Origin: Marinicella sp.
GTDB lineage: Bacteria > Pseudomonadota > Gammaproteobacteria > Xanthomonadales > Marinicellaceae
DNA length: 64,000 nucleotides
NCBI GenBank assembly: GCA_965230295.1
Contig: OZ246001.1
Coordinates: 3,584,001 to 3,648,000 of the forward strand
Reading direction: 5' to 3'
Shown: positions 14,819 to 23,065 of the stretch, in pieces
Layout of the letters: each line of letters begins with the position of its first letter
Numbering within the stretch: position 1 is the first letter of the stretch
Program-made: the position numbers and the translations under genes
The notes under the pieces: model-generated
The model's database searches: none
Told to the model about the DNA's origin: nothing
What the model saw: only the letters and a program-made list of their open reading frames with translations

Positions 14819-17800
14819 TTGATGGTAAAATTTTTTGCTTTTACTCACAACCACTCACTTGGGAGACATGACATGCTAAAACCCTTTGTACGACGAAAAC
14901 ACATCAAGCTCTGCGTGTGTATTCTGATGTTGTTATCATTCGTTTCAATGGCCAACACAACCGATCAATCAGGGACAAAATTACTGCGATTTGCAGATAT
15001 TCATAAAAACAAAGTGACCTTTGTTTATGGCGGTGACATCTACACTGCAGACATACAGTCAGGCCAAGCAAAACGACTGACTTCACACAAAGGTTTTGAG
15101 ACATTTCCTAAGTTTTCTCGTGATGGCAATAAAATCGCTTTCACCGCTGAATACACGGGATCAAGACAGGTTTATGTGATGAATACCGACGGCAGTGGTT
15201 TAAAACAACTGACATGGTATAACGACGTGGGCCCCATGCCACCAAGAGGTGGTTTTGATTATCGCATCTTAGACTGGTCAGCTGACAGTCAAAATATATT
15301 GGTGCGTGCCAATCGATTGCCTTGGGGCATTCGTATGGGACAACCTTATTGGGTCCCAGTACAAGGTGGCATGGAACAACCATTGGCTGTTCCTGAAACC
15401 GGTGGTGGCATGTTGTCACCTGATGGTAAAAAATTCATATACACCCCGATAGACCGTGAATTCAGAACCTGGAAACGCTATCGTGGTGGCCGTGCTCAAG
15501 ACGTATGGGTTTATGACTTAGAAGCCAACAGCAGTGAGCAATTAACCACCCATGCGGCCACTGACCATCAACCGGTATGGGTTGGTGAGGACATCTATTT
15601 CATCAGTGACCGTGATTATCATTTGAATTTGTATCGATATGTGGCAGGTGGTGAACCTGTAAAGGTCACAGATCATCAACAGTATGATGCATTGTGGGCA
15701 TCGGCCGGCCCAGATGCCATAGTTTATGAAAATGGTGGAAATCTCTGGCGATATGACCCAGCAAGCCAGCAAACCGAACCATTGAATATCAAAATCACAG
15801 CCAATCAGGAACACCTGTTGGCGCAGCGGAAAAATGTCAAAGACAACATAGATTCGATGACCATATCCCCTGATGCCAAACGGGTGGTTATTGCAGCCAG
15901 AGGAGAGCTGTTCTCAGTACCTGCAAAGACTGGTGAAATCAAAAACATCAGCAATACCCCCAGTGCCAGAGAAATTGATGTGACGTGGTCACCTGATGGT
16001 AAGCAGGTTGCTTATTTAAGTGATGCTTCTGGTGAGTATGAACTGTATACCAAAAACATCAAAACCAACAAAGTGACACGCATAACCAGTGATGGCAATA
16101 CTTGGCGCTTCCCGCCGGTGTGGTCACCTGACAGCCAGAAAATTGCTTACGCCGATACCAACCAAACTTTATGGGTCGCTGATGTTGAGAAGAAGAAAAG
16201 CAAAAAAGTAGATCGTTCCAGCAGAAATTTCATTCAAGACTATAGTTGGTCACCTGACAGTCAATGGTTGGTTTACAGCAAAACTGAAAACAGTGGATTT
16301 GGCTCATTGTATGTCTACAATCTGGGTGGTGACAAAGTCAGTCGTTTAACCAGTGAGTCATTCAATGATTTCTCCCCAGTCTTTGACCCTAACGGCCGTT
16401 ACTTGTTTTTCTTGTCTAACCGAGACTACAACTTGTCTTTCAGCAGTTATGAGTTCAATTATTTATACCATCGGGCTACTCGTGTCTATGCAGCCACACT
16501 CAACGATGACGTGCCTGCACTGTATCCATTTCAAAATGATGGCATGAGTACGGCTTCTAAAAACAATAAAAAAGCGGACACCGATAAAAATGCTGACAAT
16601 GAAGAAATCACAACAGTAGACATTAAATTGGCTGGATTTGATGACAGGGTTCGGGCATTACCAGGCGGTGCCAGCAATTATAACAACCTACAGTCTAATG
16701 GAGATGCGGTCTTTGTGGTTGAAAATGGAACCAATGGAAACAGCATCAAAATCATCAGTTTAGAAGACAATGAACAACCCAAAGTGGTGATGGCAGGTGC
16801 AACCAATTACCTCTTGTCGGGAGACGGTAAAAGCATGTTGGTTCAAAAAGGTCAAAACCACCACATTGTCAAAGCGGCTGCCGATCAAAAAGCCAAAGAA
16901 AACCAACTGGATCTCAAACATTTAACTTTAAAAATTGACCCGAAAGTTGAATGGCAACAAATGTATACGGATGCCTGGAGGATCCTCAGGGATTGGTTCT
17001 ATGATCCAGGTATGCATGGCAATGACTGGCAAGCCATACATGATAAATACCAACCCATGGCAGCTGCCGCCACCCATCGCACCGATTTAGACTACGTTTT
17101 TGGCGAGATCGCCGGTGAAATGAATGCTGGACACATCTATGTCAATTCTGGTGATCAACCACAAGTGGAGCGCCAACAGAATGGTTTGCTTGGTGCTGAA
17201 TTCGAAAAACACAAAAGTGGTTATTTTAAAATCAGTAAAATCTTTGCCGGTGAGAACTGGACTCCCAACAGGCGTTCTCCATTGACTGAATCTGGGATAA
17301 AAGCTGCTGTGGGTGATTTTGTGTTGTCAATCAATGGTCACAGTACCAAAGACACTGCCAATATTTATCAATTGTTGGAGCACACCCTGGACCGCACTGT
17401 GAGTATCGAATTGAATGACCAGGCGAAAGAATCAGGATCTTGGACGGTCCATGTCAAACCCATTGGTTCAGAAAGCCAGTTGCGTTACTTTAATTGGGTT
17501 GAAGAACGCCGTGCGATGGTAGACAAGTTGTCAGGAGGGCGCATTGGTTACGTTCACTTACCCAATACAGCCATTGATGGCAATCGTGAGTTGTTCAAAC
17601 AAATGCTCCCACAAATAGGTAAAGATGCTTTGATCATTGACGATCGTTACAATGGGGGTGGTTTTATCCCTGATCGCATGATCGAACTGTTGTCGCGTAA
17701 AACCATCAACTACTGGAAGCGCAGAGGTCTGGATTTAGACAGCAACGCCACACCATTGATTGCTCATGATGGGCCTAAAGTGATGTTAACCAACGGCCAA

Positions 17801-18145
17801 TCCAGTTCAGGTGGTGATGCCTTACCTTATTATTTCCGCAAAGCAGGCTTGGGTAAAATCATTGGTACCCGCACGTGGGGTGGATTGATTGGGATCAGTG
17901 GAAATCCAGGGCTGGCAGACGGTGGATCGATTTTGGCTTCAACATTCAGATTTATGGATACAGAAGGCAATTGGGCGGTAGAAAATGAAGGGGTTTCGCC
18001 TGATATTGAAGTGATCGATCGACCAGAGTTGGTGGCAGCGGGTAAAGACCCGTCCATTGAACGGGCGGTTGAGGAATTACTGAAAGACTTGAAAGAAAAC
18101 CCCAGGAAAACGATCAAGTCGCCGCCAGCGCCCACTGAATTTTAA
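14819..18145 (+). CDS. Tricorn protease homologue (S41 peptidase; PD40 propellers, PDZ)
   Basis: WKRYRGG, WSPD repeats, GYVHLPNT, DDRYNGGG, SSSGGD catalytic region, GTRTWGG, ENEGVSPDI; true start probably later (14873 or 14927). Confidence 0.92.
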   Translation: MMVKFFAFTHNHSLGRHDMLKPFVRRKHIKLCVCILMLLSFVSMANTTDQSGTKLLRFADIHKNKVTFVYGGDIYTADIQSGQAKRLTSHKGFETFPKFSRDGNKIAFTAEYTGSRQVYVMNTDGSGLKQLTWYNDVGPMPPRGGFDYRILDWSADSQNILVRANRLPWGIRMGQPYWVPVQGGMEQPLAVPETGGGMLSPDGKKFIYTPIDREFRTWKRYRGGRAQDVWVYDLEANSSEQLTTHAATDHQPVWVGEDIYFISDRDYHLNLYRYVAGGEPVKVTDHQQYDALWASAGPDAIVYENGGNLWRYDPASQQTEPLNIKITANQEHLLAQRKNVKDNIDSMTISPDAKRVVIAARGELFSVPAKTGEIKNISNTPSAREIDVTWSPDGKQVAYLSDASGEYELYTKNIKTNKVTRITSDGNTWRFPPVWSPDSQKIAYADTNQTLWVADVEKKKSKKVDRSSRNFIQDYSWSPDSQWLVYSKTENSGFGSLYVYNLGGDKVSRLTSESFNDFSPVFDPNGRYLFFLSNRDYNLSFSSYEFNYLYHRATRVYAATLNDDVPALYPFQNDGMSTASKNNKKADTDKNADNEEITTVDIKLAGFDDRVRALPGGASNYNNLQSNGDAVFVVENGTNGNSIKIISLEDNEQPKVVMAGATNYLLSGDGKSMLVQKGQNHHIVKAAADQKAKENQLDLKHLTLKIDPKVEWQQMYTDAWRILRDWFYDPGMHGNDWQAIHDKYQPMAAAATHRTDLDYVFGEIAGEMNAGHIYVNSGDQPQVERQQNGLLGAEFEKHKSGYFKISKIFAGENWTPNRRSPLTESGIKAAVGDFVLSINGHSTKDTANIYQLLEHTLDRTVSIELNDQAKESGSWTVHVKPIGSESQLRYFNWVEERRAMVDKLSGGRIGYVHLPNTAIDGNRELFKQMLPQIGKDALIIDDRYNGGGFIPDRMIELLSRKTINYWKRRGLDLDSNATPLIAHDGPKVMLTNGQSSSGGDALPYYFRKAGLGKIIGTRTWGGLIGISGNPGLADGGSILASTFRFMDTEGNWAVENEGVSPDIEVIDRPELVAAGKDPSIERAVEELLKDLKENPRKTIKSPPAPTEF

Positions 18146-18169
18146 AACAAGGATTTCTTTGTAAATAGA

Positions 18170-18198
18170 TTGACTTTTACCAATCTATGTGAAAAATG
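18170..18198 (+). promoter_or_regulatory. Possible promoter of the rtcB leader
   Basis: TTGACT at 18170-18175; only a weak -10 (TGtgAAAAAT); followed by hairpin CACTTGTCCGA/TCGGGCAAGTG 18203-18229. Confidence 0.35.
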
Positions 18199-18285
18199 TA
18201 CGCACTTGTCCGATGGGTTCGGGCAAGTGTAACCATTAAAAACGTGCTATGTGGCACCGAATTAGCATCTAAAGGAGGCTTAAAC

Positions 18286-18318
18286 ATGCAAAACAAATAT
18301 ACGAGAAAAATGAGTTAA
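18286..18318 (+). CDS. Putative leader peptide MQNKYTRKMS
   Basis: Strong SD AAAGGAGG (18271-18278) 7 nt before ATG; TAA is followed directly by alternative hairpins and a terminator. Confidence 0.7.
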   Translation: MQNKYTRKMS

Positions 18319-18376
18319 GCGCCTACCAACATATTTTGTTTGGAAGGCCAAGATTAACAGTGCCTTTCAGACTTTC

Positions 18377-18413
18377 AAAAAGCCTGAAATGCATTGCATG
18401 TCGGGCTTTTTTT
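18377..18413 (+). terminator. Intrinsic terminator (attenuator) upstream of rtcB
   Basis: AAAAAGCCTGA-a-ATGC-att-GCAT-g-TCGGGCTTTTTTT. Confidence 0.8.
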
Positions 18414-18536
18414 ATGCCAGAAAAAAGGCAAGCCTGATTTTTATAAGGAAACAGGCAGCAAGTATTTGCTGCTCAATCAGAGGAGTCTTGTGAGGTCGGT
18501 TTTCATCCGAAGAGCTTGCCCTGATACAGATCGGGG

Positions 18537-19766
18537 ATGAAAGAAGGGAAACAAGACACAAAAACTATGCCAATATTAAAACAAATAAACAAGGGTAAAG
18601 TACCCATAAAAATATATACAGAGGACATTGCACCCCAAGCCATCAATCAACTGGTGAATATTGCCAATTTGCCCATTGTTCACCACCATGTGGCAGTCAT
18701 GCCGGATGTGCATGTTGGGATTGGAGCCACCGTAGGTTCGGTGATTCCCACACTCAATGCTGTTATTCCAGCAGCGGTTGGCGTTGACATCGGTTGTGGT
18801 ATGAATGCGGTGAGAACCAGCTTAACAGCCAATGACTTACCAGATCATTTATTTGGTGTCAGGCGTGAAATTGAACGACTTGTTCCTGTAGGTTTCAACA
18901 AACACAAGAAGTCGGTGGTCAACCGGTCCAGTATCAATGGATTAGACAAGCCATTGGATGAAATCTTACATAAACACCCAGGCATCATGAAAATGTTGAA
19001 AAACTTCAACCCGACCTGGCAAAACCAGTTGGGTACATTGGGAGGAGGTAACCACTTCATTGAATTGTGTCTGGATGAAAATGATGATGTGTGGATTATG
19101 CTTCACTCCGGTTCTCGTGGCATCGGCAATGTGATTGGTCGATACTTCATCAACCTGGCCAAGAAAGACATGCAAAGACACCAACATCATTTACCTGATG
19201 TTAACTTGTCTTACTTGTCGGAAGGCAGTGATCATTTCGATGATTATGTGATGGCTGTTAATTGGGCCCAGGAGTATGCCTGGATGAATCGCCAGGAGAT
19301 GATGAAATTGGTGGTGAAGGCATTGCAAAACAGTGCATTGCCAGCATTCACTTTAACCAAGAAAGCCATCAACTGCCACCATAACTACATATCTCACGAG
19401 ACCCATTATGGAGAGGCGGTTTATGTAACCCGTAAAGGTGCCATCAGAGCAGGTGAAGGTGAGCTTGGCATCATTCCAGGGTCAATGGGAGCTAAATCCT
19501 ATATTGTTGAAGGTAGGGGTTCAAAAACATCATTCTGTTCATGTGCACATGGAGCAGGGCGAACCATGAGCCGCACCGAAGCCAAACGAACTTTCAATAC
19601 CCAGGATTTGAAACATCAAACCATGGGTGTTGAATGTCGCAAAGACAAGAACATGCTGGATGAAATTCCGGGTGCCTATAAGGACATCGATCAAGTGATG
19701 GAGAATCAACATGATTTGGTGTCTGTGGTTCATACTTTGAAACAAGTGGTTTGTGTCAAAGGATGA
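18537..19766 (+). CDS. rtcB: RNA ligase RtcB (3'-phosphate/5'-OH)
   Basis: MPDVH, GVDIGCG, LGTLGGGNHFIE, LHSGSRG, HHNY, RKGA, PGSMG, HGAGR (catalytic His), DEIPGAYKDI, C-terminal VKG; start may be ATG 18567. Confidence 0.96.
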   Translation: MKEGKQDTKTMPILKQINKGKVPIKIYTEDIAPQAINQLVNIANLPIVHHHVAVMPDVHVGIGATVGSVIPTLNAVIPAAVGVDIGCGMNAVRTSLTANDLPDHLFGVRREIERLVPVGFNKHKKSVVNRSSINGLDKPLDEILHKHPGIMKMLKNFNPTWQNQLGTLGGGNHFIELCLDENDDVWIMLHSGSRGIGNVIGRYFINLAKKDMQRHQHHLPDVNLSYLSEGSDHFDDYVMAVNWAQEYAWMNRQEMMKLVVKALQNSALPAFTLTKKAINCHHNYISHETHYGEAVYVTRKGAIRAGEGELGIIPGSMGAKSYIVEGRGSKTSFCSCAHGAGRTMSRTEAKRTFNTQDLKHQTMGVECRKDKNMLDEIPGAYKDIDQVMENQHDLVSVVHTLKQVVCVKG

Positions 19767-19775
19767 AAAAGTAAC

Positions 19776-19803
19776 AACCGCTGTTGGACAGTCAGCAGCG
19801 GTT
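19776..19803 (+). other. Intercistronic stem-loop after rtcB
   Basis: AACCGCTGTTG-gacagt-CAGCAGCGGTT (one G-U), poor U-tract. Confidence 0.5.
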
Positions 19804-19886
19804 TAACTTAGGAAACGATATGCAAGATAACAACGACAGAAAAACTAAAAACTTTATGAATACGAAAACACATATGAGAGAACATC

Positions 19887-20849
19887 ATGAACAAACAACT
19901 GTTAGACGAGGTGTTGTATTGCTTATCTGATGATCGACACACATACCATTATTTCAAAGATAAATATTGTATGTTCCTGTTAGATCATTACATCAAGGAA
20001 GAAACACCCGTTAAAAATATTAAAAACAGCCACTTAGCCAGGTTTTGCCAAAAACCAGTGGTCAAAACATGGTTAGCCGGCATGGGTAAGAAAACCGTCA
20101 ATCCAGAAATGATAGCTGCCATGTGGCCAACTGATCTATATCACTTCACTGTGACATTAGGTCAGTGGGGTGGTGATGACCCCTATTGGCAACAAACGGC
20201 CAGACCCGGGTTTAACCTGGTGGTTCAATTGAACTTCAGTCGTACACACGATCGAATGTATCAGGCAGTGATTGAAAAAGATTCTACATATCAACCTTTT
20301 GTTTGTGAATCTCATCCAATCCATGGGCATCGAAACACCATTGCTTGGGCGCGTTTAGACATCAGTGAAGATTTTTCAGAGGTGCTGATTGAAGAAGTAC
20401 AAAATGATTGGCTCAGATATGCTTGGGGGCTTTATCAGTCCATTAAGAAAGATCCCAATGCAGAACGCCTGGCACGGCATGGCTTTCGAACCAATTGGGA
20501 TCGACTTCAAGCTTACTTTGAAGATGAGATCAAACCCATGATGCAGGTATGGGATGAAGCCATCTTGTGTGCCACATTGGAATATGTAGTCACTCAGATT
20601 GGCGCGGAAAAGATCTATATGTATGACCATTTGACCGGTGTAGAGATGAAATCGATGGGTCATTGGCATCCACCCAGATCTTTATACACCCAACTGCCTA
20701 AAAAGTTCGGTTTTGAAATCACGACGGAATCACCCCGATTTTACCAGGATGATTTTCGTCTTGAACGGCGAATGAAAAAGATTCGCCAAAGGATGACGCC
20801 TAAATGGCATTTTTTAAATTTAAACAAAGGAGGTATCTATGCCCAATAA
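19887..20849 (+). CDS. Uncharacterised protein, possible divergent GNAT-like fold
   Basis: 320-aa ORF; AWARLDI..VLIEEVQNDW..ILCATLEY..GAEKIYM..LYTQLPKKFGF pattern resembles GNAT strand/helix order. ORF is solid, fold call is speculative. Confidence 0.7.
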   Translation: MNKQLLDEVLYCLSDDRHTYHYFKDKYCMFLLDHYIKEETPVKNIKNSHLARFCQKPVVKTWLAGMGKKTVNPEMIAAMWPTDLYHFTVTLGQWGGDDPYWQQTARPGFNLVVQLNFSRTHDRMYQAVIEKDSTYQPFVCESHPIHGHRNTIAWARLDISEDFSEVLIEEVQNDWLRYAWGLYQSIKKDPNAERLARHGFRTNWDRLQAYFEDEIKPMMQVWDEAILCATLEYVVTQIGAEKIYMYDHLTGVEMKSMGHWHPPRSLYTQLPKKFGFEITTESPRFYQDDFRLERRMKKIRQRMTPKWHFLNLNKGGIYAQ

Positions 20850-21006
20850 CAACCGCAGAAACTGGGTTGCCAGAGCAGCCATTATGCGCAAAGGCGGGGT
20901 TCATGAAAAAACCCATAAGACCAAAAGAAAACAGGCCAAGCAGGCCTTAAAGAAAAAAATCAGAGCCGAGCACTTCGGCTCTTTTTTGTTGGGTATTCGC
21001 CAATAG
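20839..21006 (+). CDS. Unannotated 55-aa basic protein, candidate alternative ribosome-rescue factor
   Basis: SD AGGAGG 20828-20833, ATG 20839 overlapping the upstream stop; MPNNNRRNWVARAAIMRKGGVHEKTHKTKRKQAKQALKKKIRAEHFGSFLLGIRQ; contains an internal terminator. Confidence 0.72.
   Translation: MPNNNRRNWVARAAIMRKGGVHEKTHKTKRKQAKQALKKKIRAEHFGSFLLGIRQ
20962..20990 (+). terminator. Intrinsic terminator inside the 55-aa ORF, upstream of its stop codon
   Basis: AGAGCCGAG-cac-TTCGGCTCT-TTTTTGTT; stop TAG is at 21004-21006. Confidence 0.8.
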
Positions 21007-21032
21007 CCACCAGTCAACAGAGACTGGTGGCT
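21005..21032. other. Perfect 11-bp hairpin at the stop codon of the small ORF
   Basis: AGCCACCAGTC-aacaga-GACTGGTGGCT, no U-tract. Confidence 0.55.
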
Positions 21033-21286
21033 CAGGATCGATCACAATATTTATGCAGTAGGGCAAACTTCGAACTCGTTATTAGATGACATTGAGCATT
21101 TTAAACCCACCTAAAAAACTCAACAGTGCTGGACAAGCCAATAGAAACCTCGACTCAGGGAATATTCAGTGCCAAAACTTTGAACCTTTTCAAAAAAATC
21201 AAAGGGATTGAGTTGAATCAATGTTTTTATGGGTGGTTTCACCGAGACTTTTGGTATGATTCGGAGCTGAAGTTTGGGGTGAGTTA

Positions 21287-23065
21287 ATGAGTAAATCAAT
21301 TCAATTAATTACATGGTTTTTTATCATGCAGTTGAGTGTGTGTAACATAGCAATTGCTGAACAACCGTGTACAGAGGTCATCAAGAAAGGCGATTATCCT
21401 GCTGCTCTGAAAGTGTGTAGTGATGAATCACACAGGAAATCTAACCAAGATATTGAGGTCTTGCTCTCATTGGTGGAAATCAACCATGAACTGGGTGATG
21501 ATGAACAAGAAGCCTACTATTTAGCCAAAATCAAGACCCCCCCTACATTTCTTGAAAACATCGAATACCAATATCAATGGAATCGCAGGGTGGGGCAAAA
21601 ATACTACTTTTTAGGCGATTATCAACAGGCCAAGAAATATTTGCACAAAGGCCTAGACATTGCCACCACCGAGGCTCAGCAAAATTGGCAAAGCAAGAGT
21701 TACAACGATGTGGGTTTGGTTGCTTATAAATTAAAAGATCACACCAGTGCTTTGAGTTTCTTTAAACAAAGCCTCAACCTAAAAAGAACACATGGCAATG
21801 CCTACGAAGTGGGCAAAACACTCAACAACATCGCATTGGTGCACATGGAACTGGAAGAACATGAGCAAGCGGTTGATTTTTATGAGCAGGCACTGGATCA
21901 ATACCTCGCCTATGTCAAAGAAGATCAATTCGATGAACGGGTGTTTCAACAAATTGCCCATATCTATGAAGACCTGACCCAGGCATACACAGCTTCAAAG
22001 AATGTGGTCAGAGCCAAAGATTACGCGGCTAAAATGGTGGCCACATTTAAATTAAAAAACTCACCAAAAGCACAGGCCAGGGCATTGTTAAACTTAACCA
22101 GGCACCACTTGGGTTTACAGCAATACCCAACCGCCAAAGTGTTTTTAGAGGAAGCCAAGCGGTTAAAAGCAGACAATGATTTTGCATTCGAAACCAGTTA
22201 CTTCCTGGATGCCGCAACCATTGCATTCCATCACAGCAAACACTCTGAAGCCGTGCAGTTGGCAGAGCAGGGTTTGAACGCTGCCATAATCGAGAAGGAC
22301 CATCGATTGATCAGTCAGTTCTATGCCCGTTTAAGTGATTTCTCAAAGGCGGAAAACCCCTCATTGGCATTGCGTTACATGGAACAACAGCAACAAAGTC
22401 GTGAGGCATTTTTACAAGAAAAATATGACAAAGACCTCAGTACCATTAAACATGAAGTTGAAAAGCAACAAATCAAACATGACCTCATCAATGAACAATT
22501 ATTGAATGCACAAAAGTCTGCAGAATTGCAGCGACTGACCAATGGTGTGTTGCTGGTTTCAATGGTTTTGCTGTTGATCACGGGTGTATTTATCACCTAT
22601 GTGGTCAATAAAAAAAGAGAGCAAAAGGAATTGCTCAAATCGATCAAACACCACAAACAGCAATTATTCATGATGCAAAATCAACACATGGTTTTGAATG
22701 AGCCTGATCAACTGAATCAAAATCAAGGGGTGAAGCAGTCACTGAAAGTCAATTTGGTCAGTACCATGATAGATGCATTATCGATTTGGGAAAAAACCAC
22801 CGGCAAAGACCGCATTGAATTGGCTGAATCCAGTAAGGTATGGACCATTTCAATTGATAATGGCACCCTGAGAACACGGTCATTAGACAAGTATTTGGAT
22901 GTTGAAAAGATACCAAAGAATCCCAGATGGCGGAATGTGGTTAAAACTTGTCACTTCATTCTGTCCAGAGAGGAATTGTCAGCAGAGGACCGTTCCCACA
23001 TGGAACAAAAGTTGGCCGAGTTACTCGATCAAGTCAAGCAGTTGTCATTAGGCAAGGTAGCCTGA
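21287..23065 (+). CDS. Membrane-anchored regulator: signal peptide, periplasmic TPRs, one TM helix, coiled coil, ChiS-family-like DNA-binding domain
   Basis: TPR motifs (SYNDVGLVAY..A..F..SL, TLNNIALVH..A..YEQAL); TM GVLLVSMVLLLITGVFITYVV; C-terminal W...TGK....LA..S..W....D.G..RT.SLDKYL....P..PRW..V..T..F.L recalled as ChiS-type. Confidence 0.72.
   Translation: MSKSIQLITWFFIMQLSVCNIAIAEQPCTEVIKKGDYPAALKVCSDESHRKSNQDIEVLLSLVEINHELGDDEQEAYYLAKIKTPPTFLENIEYQYQWNRRVGQKYYFLGDYQQAKKYLHKGLDIATTEAQQNWQSKSYNDVGLVAYKLKDHTSALSFFKQSLNLKRTHGNAYEVGKTLNNIALVHMELEEHEQAVDFYEQALDQYLAYVKEDQFDERVFQQIAHIYEDLTQAYTASKNVVRAKDYAAKMVATFKLKNSPKAQARALLNLTRHHLGLQQYPTAKVFLEEAKRLKADNDFAFETSYFLDAATIAFHHSKHSEAVQLAEQGLNAAIIEKDHRLISQFYARLSDFSKAENPSLALRYMEQQQQSREAFLQEKYDKDLSTIKHEVEKQQIKHDLINEQLLNAQKSAELQRLTNGVLLVSMVLLLITGVFITYVVNKKREQKELLKSIKHHKQQLFMMQNQHMVLNEPDQLNQNQGVKQSLKVNLVSTMIDALSIWEKTTGKDRIELAESSKVWTISIDNGTLRTRSLDKYLDVEKIPKNPRWRNVVKTCHFILSREELSAEDRSHMEQKLAELLDQVKQLSLGKVA

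Follow-up and report, generated by a model that had tools for sequence, protein, structure and literature searches.

A candidate RNA-repair and ribosome-rescue operon was found in a stretch of 64,000 nucleotides (nt) of the Marinicella sp. genome (GenBank assembly GCA_965230295.1, contig OZ246001.1, positions 3,584,001 to 3,648,000 of the forward strand), referred to here as the window. Positions 18170-21006 of the window are predicted to form one operon of five parts: a promoter, a leader, the RNA ligase gene rtcB, a gene for a 320-residue protein (P320), and a gene for a small peptide (P55) that carries an intrinsic terminator inside its own open reading frame (ORF). The preliminary description of this stretch had outlined a co-oriented unit with a leader peptide and a terminator at its 5' end and a last ORF cut by its own terminator, and all of these parts were confirmed at their coordinates, on the plus strand throughout. 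On balance, we favor the view that this is an RNA-repair and ribosome-rescue module in which the leader would be induced by stalled ribosomes and P55 would be produced from non-stop mRNA. A more far-reaching version appears possible to us, if short of probable. In that version, P55 might be the founder of a new, widespread family of rescue peptides, unrelated to ArfA, BrfA, and ArfT, encoded by self-truncating non-stop mRNA and often wired to RtcB. Together with a stall-reading leader and RtcB, it might constitute a PrfH-independent "free, then reseal" system against ribotoxins or translation inhibitors, with P320 providing an enzymatic step common to the PrfH and P55 versions.

The gene context of P320 provides the link to ribosome rescue. 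We surveyed the 80 best P320 loci and distinguished window-type RtcB (at least 55% identity) from distant RtcB (25 to 34% identity). Window-type RtcB and P55 were found together in 27 loci (plus 2 in which a contig end leaves only part of rtcB), so the gene-neighborhood survey that the preliminary description had called for found the rtcB-P320-P55 linkage conserved. P55 only was present in 8 loci and window-type RtcB only in 6, while 12 contained distant RtcB (RtcB2) together with PrfH (plus 1 with PrfH only), 4 contained distant RtcB only, and 20 had none of RtcB, P55, and PrfH. PrfH in the distant-RtcB loci is a protein of 231 residues (TIGR03072, 198 bits versus a cutoff of 166.65), and RlaP (PF10127) is often encoded ahead of the pair. 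P55 and PrfH did not occur together in any of the 80 loci (hypergeometric P of 1.2e-4 if the loci are taken as independent, which ignores kinship). Judged from these arrangements, P320 is probably an accessory common to two parallel operon types, in which the position after the ligase is taken by either PrfH or P55. The occurrence of P320 in operons of both kinds connects the module with ribosome rescue.

The RtcB encoded in the window (18537-19766, with an alternative start at 18567, where the alignment of homologs begins) is a full-length family member (PF01139, E value of 2e-130, 436.3 bits versus a cutoff of 27, profile positions 1 to 426). It aligns with the solved RtcB chains of T. thermophilus and P. 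horikoshii and is the sole RtcB in the genome. PADLOC returned no match for it. Its scores are below the NCBIfam cutoffs for both TIGR03073, representing PrfH-coupled proteins (153.6 versus 271.8), and PRK09588, representing the E. coli type (181 versus 407). Both cutoffs are exceeded by the RtcB encoded in PrfH locus L018 (436.6 and 497.4, respectively). By these profile scores, the window RtcB is a subfamily apart from E. coli RtcB and PrfH-coupled RtcB2.

P55 is encoded by a 55-codon ORF (20839-21006), which shares 11 nt with the end of P320 and has the Shine-Dalgarno (SD) sequence AAGGAGG ahead of it. The basic peptide has a conserved core of residues 1 to approximately 48. An alignment of 33 sequences yielded the motif M-P…R-N-x-[VH]-A-x2-P-x2-[RK]-K-G-G-x-H…R with the invariant residues R7, K18, G19, G20, H22, and R30. 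No Pfam, NCBIfam, PADLOC, or PDB match was obtained for P55, and its profile retrieved from the PDB sequences only a spurious tachylectin repeat match as well as weak uL4 and SVBP matches. Searched against 1.84 billion representative sequences, this profile detected 1229 clusters at E values of ≤1e-3, 438 of them at ≤1e-10. In the best 150 clusters, the domain was always N-terminal, in proteins of 46 to 165 residues. In an even gammaproteobacterial sample, 38 of the 400 genomes, from 32 of the 321 genera, contained P55, which was also present in 5 of 301 genomes of a phylum-wide sample, including one outside Gammaproteobacteria. P55 is a real, large, and widespread family with an ArfA-like gene design. 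In the ESM Atlas, P55 and P320 matched only clusters of hypothetical proteins, apart from one lead to DUF7230 (PF23876, score 0.85). An assignment of P55 to DUF7230 was rejected after no match was found in the genome at an E value of ≤1 and none in 33 plus 8 homologs.

Ribosome rescue is the most likely function of P55, as judged from its gene design, its alternation with PrfH, and the lack of known back-ups in the genome. The host genome (4.0 Mb, a single contig, 97.9% complete) encodes tmRNA (tag ANDDNYALAA) and SmpB. In searches of the whole genome, no match was obtained for RtcA, RtcR, archease, Ro60/TROVE, ArfA, or ArfB. Only two RF-1-domain genes were detected, which are those of RF1 and RF2, so there is no PrfH or ArfB. 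The reported absence of rtcA, rtcR, prfH, and Ro60 from the window hence extends to the genome as a whole. Two arguments underlie the proposed rescue role: P55 is analogous to ArfA and BrfA, and it takes the place of PrfH in operons that are parallel in other respects. P55 contains no GGQ domain, and it can therefore not itself be a peptidyl-tRNA hydrolase of the release factor type.

Several results weigh against a rescue function, above all the missing homology and the neutral profile of ArfB. No homology was detectable between P55 and ArfA (hhalign against 5 ArfA sequences, probability 0.2%), the ArfA family PF03889 had no match in P55 or in 21 plus 33 of its homologs at E values of ≤10, and the KGKGSY motif of the ArfA alignment is absent from P55. 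The P55 profile matched no solved rescue factor. ArfB was present in 18 of 38 P55-positive and 176 of 362 P55-negative genomes of the even sample. Moreover, 18 of the 37 sampled P55 genes had neither rtcB nor P320 within 6 kb (at least 4 of them on short contigs), and P55 is therefore not tied to RNA repair everywhere; rtcB was adjacent in 15 cases (two of them fragments) and P320 in 9. Two more specific ideas were dropped. A descent of P55 from ArfA was rejected, given the lack of any profile signal, and so was a substitution of P55 for ArfB, which is equally common with and without P55. ArfA (PF03889) was found in 5 of the 400 genomes, without overlap with P55, and is too rare for a test of complementarity. 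Two genomes of genus g113 are an anecdotal case of it, one (G111) having ArfA without a P55 match and the other (G291) P55 without an ArfA match. In a further genome (G276, locus L088, C105:17242-18015), arfB (192.7 bits) ends at 17652 and P55 starts at 17881, and the 229-nt gap between them holds a short rtcB fragment. A predicted complex of the P55 core with RF2 from its own genome scored 0.05, versus a mark of 0.32, which is evidence neither for nor against an interaction.

It is conceivable, if unlikely, that P55 is instead a small basic helper of RtcB or the ribosome, which guides the ligase, holds RNA ends, or acts in an archease-like manner, with its level still set by the non-stop design. 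Such a helper would fit the loci in which P55 directly follows rtcB without P320 (L092, L096, L098, L101, L109, L113, L119, and L121), the lack of an archease match in the genome, and the absence from P55 of a GGQ motif or likeness to known rescue factors. The sampled P55 genes without rtcB within 6 kb argue against it, however, and the mutual exclusion of P55 and PrfH in P320 operons points to a rescue slot rather than a ligase-cofactor slot. In addition, a non-stop design is not known for any factors but the rescue factors ArfA and BrfA.

The second element that carries our interpretation is the leader, which was initially proposed to be a 5' attenuator. A promoter of the sigma-70 type, TTGACT-16-AAAAAT, is predicted at 18170-18197 by a consensus scan, and by visual inspection of the alignment, TTGAC(A/T)-17-(C/G)ATAAT boxes are present at the matching position in L002, L004, L006, L007, and L008. 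The transcript would start with a stem-loop at 18203-18229 (a 12-bp helix in the fold, also found in L002), followed by the SD sequence GGAGG (18274-18278) and a mini-ORF of 10 codons plus stop, MQNKYTRKMS (18286-18318). Segment B (GCGCCTACCAAC, 18319-18330) abuts the mini-ORF stop and is complementary to segment C as well as, in the Marinicella clade, to the SD sequence. Hairpin P2 (18334-18372) is formed by segment C (…TTTGGAAGGCC, 18334-18349) and segment D (GTGCCTTTCAGAC, 18360-18372), and an intrinsic terminator follows at 18382-18413, with its stem at 18382-18406 and its T-run at 18407-18413.

This leader is conserved beyond chance and shows covariation. The 390-nt region upstream of rtcB folds much more stably than its shuffled versions (z of -5.3). 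Seven loci of the Marinicella clade differ in their upstream genes, yet they share the SD sequence, an ORF of 10 to 11 codons, the hairpin, and the terminator; the sequence of the mini-ORF peptide is not conserved among them. The RNAalifold consensus contains three helices, SD:B (P1), C:D (P2), and the terminator, with 5 pairs kept through two-sided changes. P2 has 11 consensus pairs, with one-sided and two-sided changes, and its C:D duplex has an energy of -16.6 kcal/mol. In the terminator, 4 stem pairs are kept through two-sided changes and the T-run is invariant in all 7 sequences. The covariance model R1 scored 135.5 bits at the window leader, which is the single copy in its genome, and 101 bits at L009, a clade member outside the training set. 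More distant copies were detected at E values of <1e-3 in L092, L096, L106, L066, and L020, and others at 0.007 to 0.06. Outside the window, 21 of 23 R1 matches on the module strand with E values of ≤0.1 were located no more than 250 nt ahead of the gene that opens the module, which was rtcB in 14 cases, P320 in 4, and P55 in 3. An Rfam search of 17500-21600 at E values of ≤10 returned chance-level matches only (rli38, 27.8 bits versus 49; PhrS, 15.2 versus 37).

Pairing and ORF statistics were obtained for 27 leaders, with B:C tested against 200 shuffles each. The common order of elements is mini-ORF stop, B (CCTTCC-like), spacer, C (GGAAGG-like), loop, D (CCTTCC-like), and terminator. B begins 0 to 7 nt from the mini-ORF stop in 26 of the 27 leaders, its complementarity to C exceeds that of at least 190 of the 200 shuffles in 23, and it covaries where C and D have changed (L003, L066, and L008). 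An ATG ORF of 8 to 11 codons with an SD sequence is present in 18 leaders. Transcripts ending before the 3' arm of the terminator form B:C plus a long helix of D with the terminator 5' arm in approximately 20 of the 27 by our reading, and masking B in truncated transcripts left the terminator 5' arm freer in 9 of the 27 and never less free. The leader thus combines, by prediction, the features of a ribosome-dependent attenuator, that is, a short ORF preceded by an SD sequence, a terminator ahead of the regulated gene, and the mutually exclusive helices B:C and C:D. The attenuator reading is well supported by sequence comparison, and we propose the leader as a candidate new RNA family responding to translation stress.

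Other results speak against this scheme. The D:T1 antiterminator and the SD:B helix are each significant by duplex energy in only 7 of the 27 leaders, and six leaders with a 2-codon ORF suit a sensor of ribosome presence or absence more than a stalling sensor. Both are also compatible with a reading that we regard as improbable, namely that the leader is a small RNA (sRNA) gene, or a switch that binds a protein or ligand, and contains a short ORF by coincidence. The separate promoter and terminator, a predicted stable transcript of approximately 210 nt, and the unconserved peptide would fit such an element. Against it stand the frequent SD-preceded ORF and the near-constant junction of its stop with B, as well as the same-strand position just upstream of the first module gene. 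Furthermore, the PA5471.1 leader of an RtcB-like operon acts through translation (PMC12057347). A dual role of the attenuator candidate as an sRNA is conceivable.

The bases following the leader T-run (18414-18418) are conserved as (A/G)TGCC(C), also in L004, L020, L015, L031, L097, L110, L061, and L079. By inspection, the mini-ORF peptides seem to favor Asn, Gln, Lys, Arg, Tyr, His, and Asp codons, and the A-rich leader may explain this bias. Anticodon nucleases typically act on the tRNAs for such codons. A different leader was noticed upstream of the first gene in ten loci (L033, L039, L043, L045, L046, L049, L050, L054, L074, and L080; L033:3100-3280). It comprises a promoter, an SD sequence, and a 16-codon upstream ORF (uORF) with the conserved end …SLVSFTFR-stop within a GC-rich structure. 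R1 found no match at E values of ≤1 in the ten loci with the gene order RbfA-like gene, rtcB, P320, and P55, and the other leader may represent a second type for this module, one that depends on its peptide. The RbfA paralog (PF02033, E value of 3e-11; L033:3279-3683) is encoded directly upstream of rtcB in 10 of the 80 P320 loci. RbfA binds the 3' part of 16S rRNA, and the presence of its paralog hints at small-subunit RNA as a substrate of the module.

The third element is the terminator inside the P55 gene (20962-20990), whose 9-bp GC-rich stem (20962-20982; -12.4 kcal/mol) is followed by TTTTTGTT and encodes …AEHFGSFL. The TAG stop codon (21004-21006) lies 22 nt past the stem, so that, as predicted from the sequence, the terminator precedes the stop in the manner that defines the ArfA/BrfA class. 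In an alignment of 20 close homologs, the match is perfect through …AExFGSF, which is the descending arm of the terminator and its U-tract read in frame, and then gives way to complete divergence, with total lengths of 52 to 84 residues. The position of the stop is not fixed and ranges from 16 to >100 nt past the hairpin. In the Marinicella clade (L002 to L008), the hairpin is kept by compensatory changes that turn the encoded AEHFGSF into GRADRPF. Since the encoded residues change while the stem is kept, the RNA and not the peptide appears to be under selection there.

An RNAfold-based scan of 68 unique P55 ORFs found a hairpin with T-run before the stop in 38, only after the stop in 8, and none in 22. 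In a stricter scan of 72 unique ORFs, which required a hairpin of ≤-10 kcal/mol and its T-run to be wholly inside the ORF, 33 P55 genes were positive (46%), versus 21 of 720 shuffled sequences (2.9%), 4 of 80 P320 genes (5%), and 7 of 54 rtcB genes. As a positive control, in-ORF hairpins were seen by eye in 4 of 5 ArfA genes from the same survey. Terminators of ArfA were reportedly described by Schaub et al. in 2012. The prediction that P55 is made only from non-stop mRNA, like ArfA and BrfA, is thus well supported by sequence comparison, and the suggestion that the last ORF is built as a non-stop-regulated factor was borne out at the level of gene design.

About half of the P55 ORFs (39 of 72 in the stricter scan) have no clear in-ORF terminator, which counts against this design being general. 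It is also what would be expected if the terminator were incidental gene packing and P55 a small basic protein like any other, translated to a normal stop from read-through or other transcripts, with no part for tmRNA. The positive rtcB genes and the P55 ORFs that end soon after the conserved core (as in L059 and L057) could be viewed in the same light. We nevertheless deem packing quite improbable in view of the excess over shuffled sequences and P320 genes, the end of conservation exactly at the hairpin with unconstrained tails (total lengths of 46 to 165 residues), the compensatory changes in the stem, and the same picture in ArfA genes. The coordinates of the preliminary description end with a hairpin at 21005-21032, which we do not count as part of the design, because it is absent from L002 to L008. 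This perfect 10-bp hairpin shares bases with the P55 stop, is not followed by a T-run, and may be a strain-specific stabilizer or repeat.

P320 (19887-20849) is a conserved protein of no named family. It had no Pfam, NCBIfam, or PADLOC match, and its profile gave 0 matches to PDB sequences at E values of ≤10. The 90 homologs collected are likewise all without a Pfam domain, and relatives are present in at least 534 species genomes. AlphaFold models (AF2) were confident, with predicted local distance difference test (pLDDT) values of 92 and 89. Foldseek searches reached best E values of 0.07 to 0.1, and the rows viewed were acetyltransferases and GNAT-related enzymes, save two flavin reductases. 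A mark of GNAT proteins is the glycine-rich loop between strand 4 and helix 3, which binds the pyrophosphate of acetyl coenzyme A (acetyl-CoA). We take the P320 strand 165-172 to be strand 4 and would expect the acetyl-CoA site at its turn, which reads …EEVQNDW… and has no conserved glycine listed in the alignment. The earlier designation of P320 as GNAT-like is thus retained as a weak lead at the level of the modeled fold and not as family membership, given the weak Foldseek E values and the missing Pfam match. In some Hyphomicrobiales (L023:2200-8119), P320 is encoded without rtcB between a gene for an RsmB/F-type 16S rRNA methyltransferase and guaA, after guaB, and this setting would be another link to rRNA.

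That P320 and P55 form a toxin-antitoxin-like pair, with a GNAT-type toxin acting on charged tRNA, a small neutralizer, and rtcB as a mere neighbor, is highly improbable, since the GNAT-like fold matches, the 11-nt gene overlap, and the small partner downstream in 37 of 80 P320 loci are offset by the 43 of 80 P320 loci that lack P55 (13 of which have PrfH), by the 28 of 37 sampled P55 loci that lack P320, and by the lack of a PADLOC match, a Pfam acetyltransferase match, and a conserved glycine after strand 165-172.

In the stall-induced rescue and repair module that we favor, the sigma-70 promoter would give rise to a leader of approximately 210 nt with an SD sequence, a 10-codon mini-ORF, and four interlocking segments, among which B may pair with C, C with D, and D, lengthened at its 3' side, with the terminator 5' arm. 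A ribosome at the mini-ORF stop would cover B, so that C:D and the terminator form and transcription ends. A loaded ribosome that is delayed earlier in the mini-ORF would leave B to pair with C, whereupon D would block the terminator and allow read-through into rtcB. With no ribosome present, SD:B would favor termination, at least in the Marinicella clade. With B freed by a lagging ribosome, the leader would thereby report slowed or damaged translation. Of the products, RtcB would act as the ligase for RNA ends with 3'-phosphate and 5'-OH, and P320 as an enzyme-like accessory with a divergent GNAT-like fold that is common with rtcB2-prfH operons. Translation of P55 would be coupled to the end of P320, and since the mRNA would end within the ORF, ribosomes would reach the 3' end without a stop codon. 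As long as tmRNA-SmpB is free, P55 would be tagged and degraded, and once trans-translation is saturated, a basic peptide of approximately 50 residues would build up. Most likely, P55 would then free stalled or nuclease-damaged ribosomes and thereby allow RtcB to reseal the RNA.

Each single principle of this module has a precedent. The closest one is the PA5471.1-armZ-prfH operon of P. aeruginosa, in which the leader peptide PA5471.1 controls armZ (PA5471), encoding an RtcB-like ligase, and prfH (PA5470) by a proposed transcription attenuation induced by ribosome-targeting drugs and ribosome defects (PMC12057347). The preliminary description, which named RtcR/sigma-54-controlled rtcBA and rtcB2-prfH as the characterized contexts of RtcB, had overlooked this operon. 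Both systems consist of a short leader ORF with one or more terminators, an RtcB-family gene, and then a rescue gene, which in the case of P55 is a candidate. They differ in that the window RtcB belongs to another subfamily, P55 replaces PrfH, and P320 is inserted in between. R1 detected no leader in 13 PrfH-type loci; PA5471.1 itself was not part of this comparison. Given this precedent, entry gating of an RtcB-type operon is not new in kind. From the initial proposal of a different, doubly gated module, the make-up without PrfH and the two gates predicted from the sequence stand, and the novelty of the entry gate does not.

The rtcB2-prfH operons of E. coli ATCC 25922 and others likewise pair an RNA ligase with a ribosome-freeing factor, a role for which P55 is a candidate, and 12 (plus 1) of the 80 surveyed P320 loci are of this kind. 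RtcB2 and PrfH rescue and repair ribosomes damaged by colicin E3 (PMC9304027, PMC13166195, and PMC11741408). P55, unlike PrfH, is a peptide of about 50 residues without a GGQ domain, in a genome without a further release factor homolog. As accessory genes of RFH-RtcB systems, Burroughs and Aravind list a TPR protein, a Pol-beta nucleotidyltransferase, a Zn-ribbon protein, and a charged-helix protein (PMC6514570), and P320 may already be among the accessory genes in its supplement. Like E. coli rtcBA, which is under the control of RtcR and sigma-54, the operon would produce a stress-induced RtcB ligase; unlike rtcBA, it comes without matches to RtcR, RtcA, and archease and with a predicted cis-acting leader instead of a CARF-domain activator.

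The rescue routes named in the literature surveyed are ArfA, ArfB, BrfA, ArfT, PrfH, and RQC, and those encoded by non-stop mRNA are the peptides ArfA and BrfA. P55 resembles ArfA (PF03889) and BrfA in being small and basic, with approximately 45 conserved residues at the N terminus, an in-ORF hairpin or terminator, and a free tail. It has no sequence relationship to ArfA, with the motif RN…P..RKGG.H in place of KGKGSY, and unlike ArfA and BrfA it is often encoded in an operon with rtcB. The leader shares with the attenuators of bmrCD, mef/mel, and similar genes the short uORF, the alternative helices, and the intrinsic terminator ahead of the regulated gene, but it belongs to another sequence family and precedes RNA repair and rescue genes instead of genes for efflux or target protection. 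A literature search found no description of P55, P320, the leader RNA, or their union with a non-PrfH RtcB, which is not proof of their being unpublished.

Back-up ribosome rescue is essential once trans-translation fails and constitutes an antibiotic target. Here, a genome without a match to ArfA, ArfB, or PrfH encodes a peptide whose gene is designed like those of ArfA and BrfA and stands where other operons have PrfH. If P55 does act in rescue, a gap would be closed for many marine and sulfur-oxidizing Gammaproteobacteria, non-stop autoregulation would have been invented independently a third time, and the "rescue then repair" logic known from RtcB2-PrfH would also apply to a second RtcB lineage. 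P320 would mark a further activity common to both operon types.

The named relatives closest to the proteins of the locus are from Marinicella. A spacer of 120 nt separates rtcB from P320, and a GC-rich hairpin without a T-run (19776-19803) that was read from its sequence may be a processing or pause site. Upstream, the operon is flanked by a gene (14819-18145) for a tricorn-like S41 protease of 1108 residues with PD40 repeats as well as a PDZ domain, and downstream by a gene (21287-23065) for a TPR protein of 592 residues, for which two sub-threshold Pfam matches (residues 387-442) indicate a possible membrane segment. Neither flanking gene is kept beside the module in other loci. In other loci, genes for SPFH/Band-7 proteins (PF01145; 8 loci, e.g., L017:2178-3461) and for an HNH endonuclease (5 loci, e.g., L017:1012-1575) recur upstream of the module.

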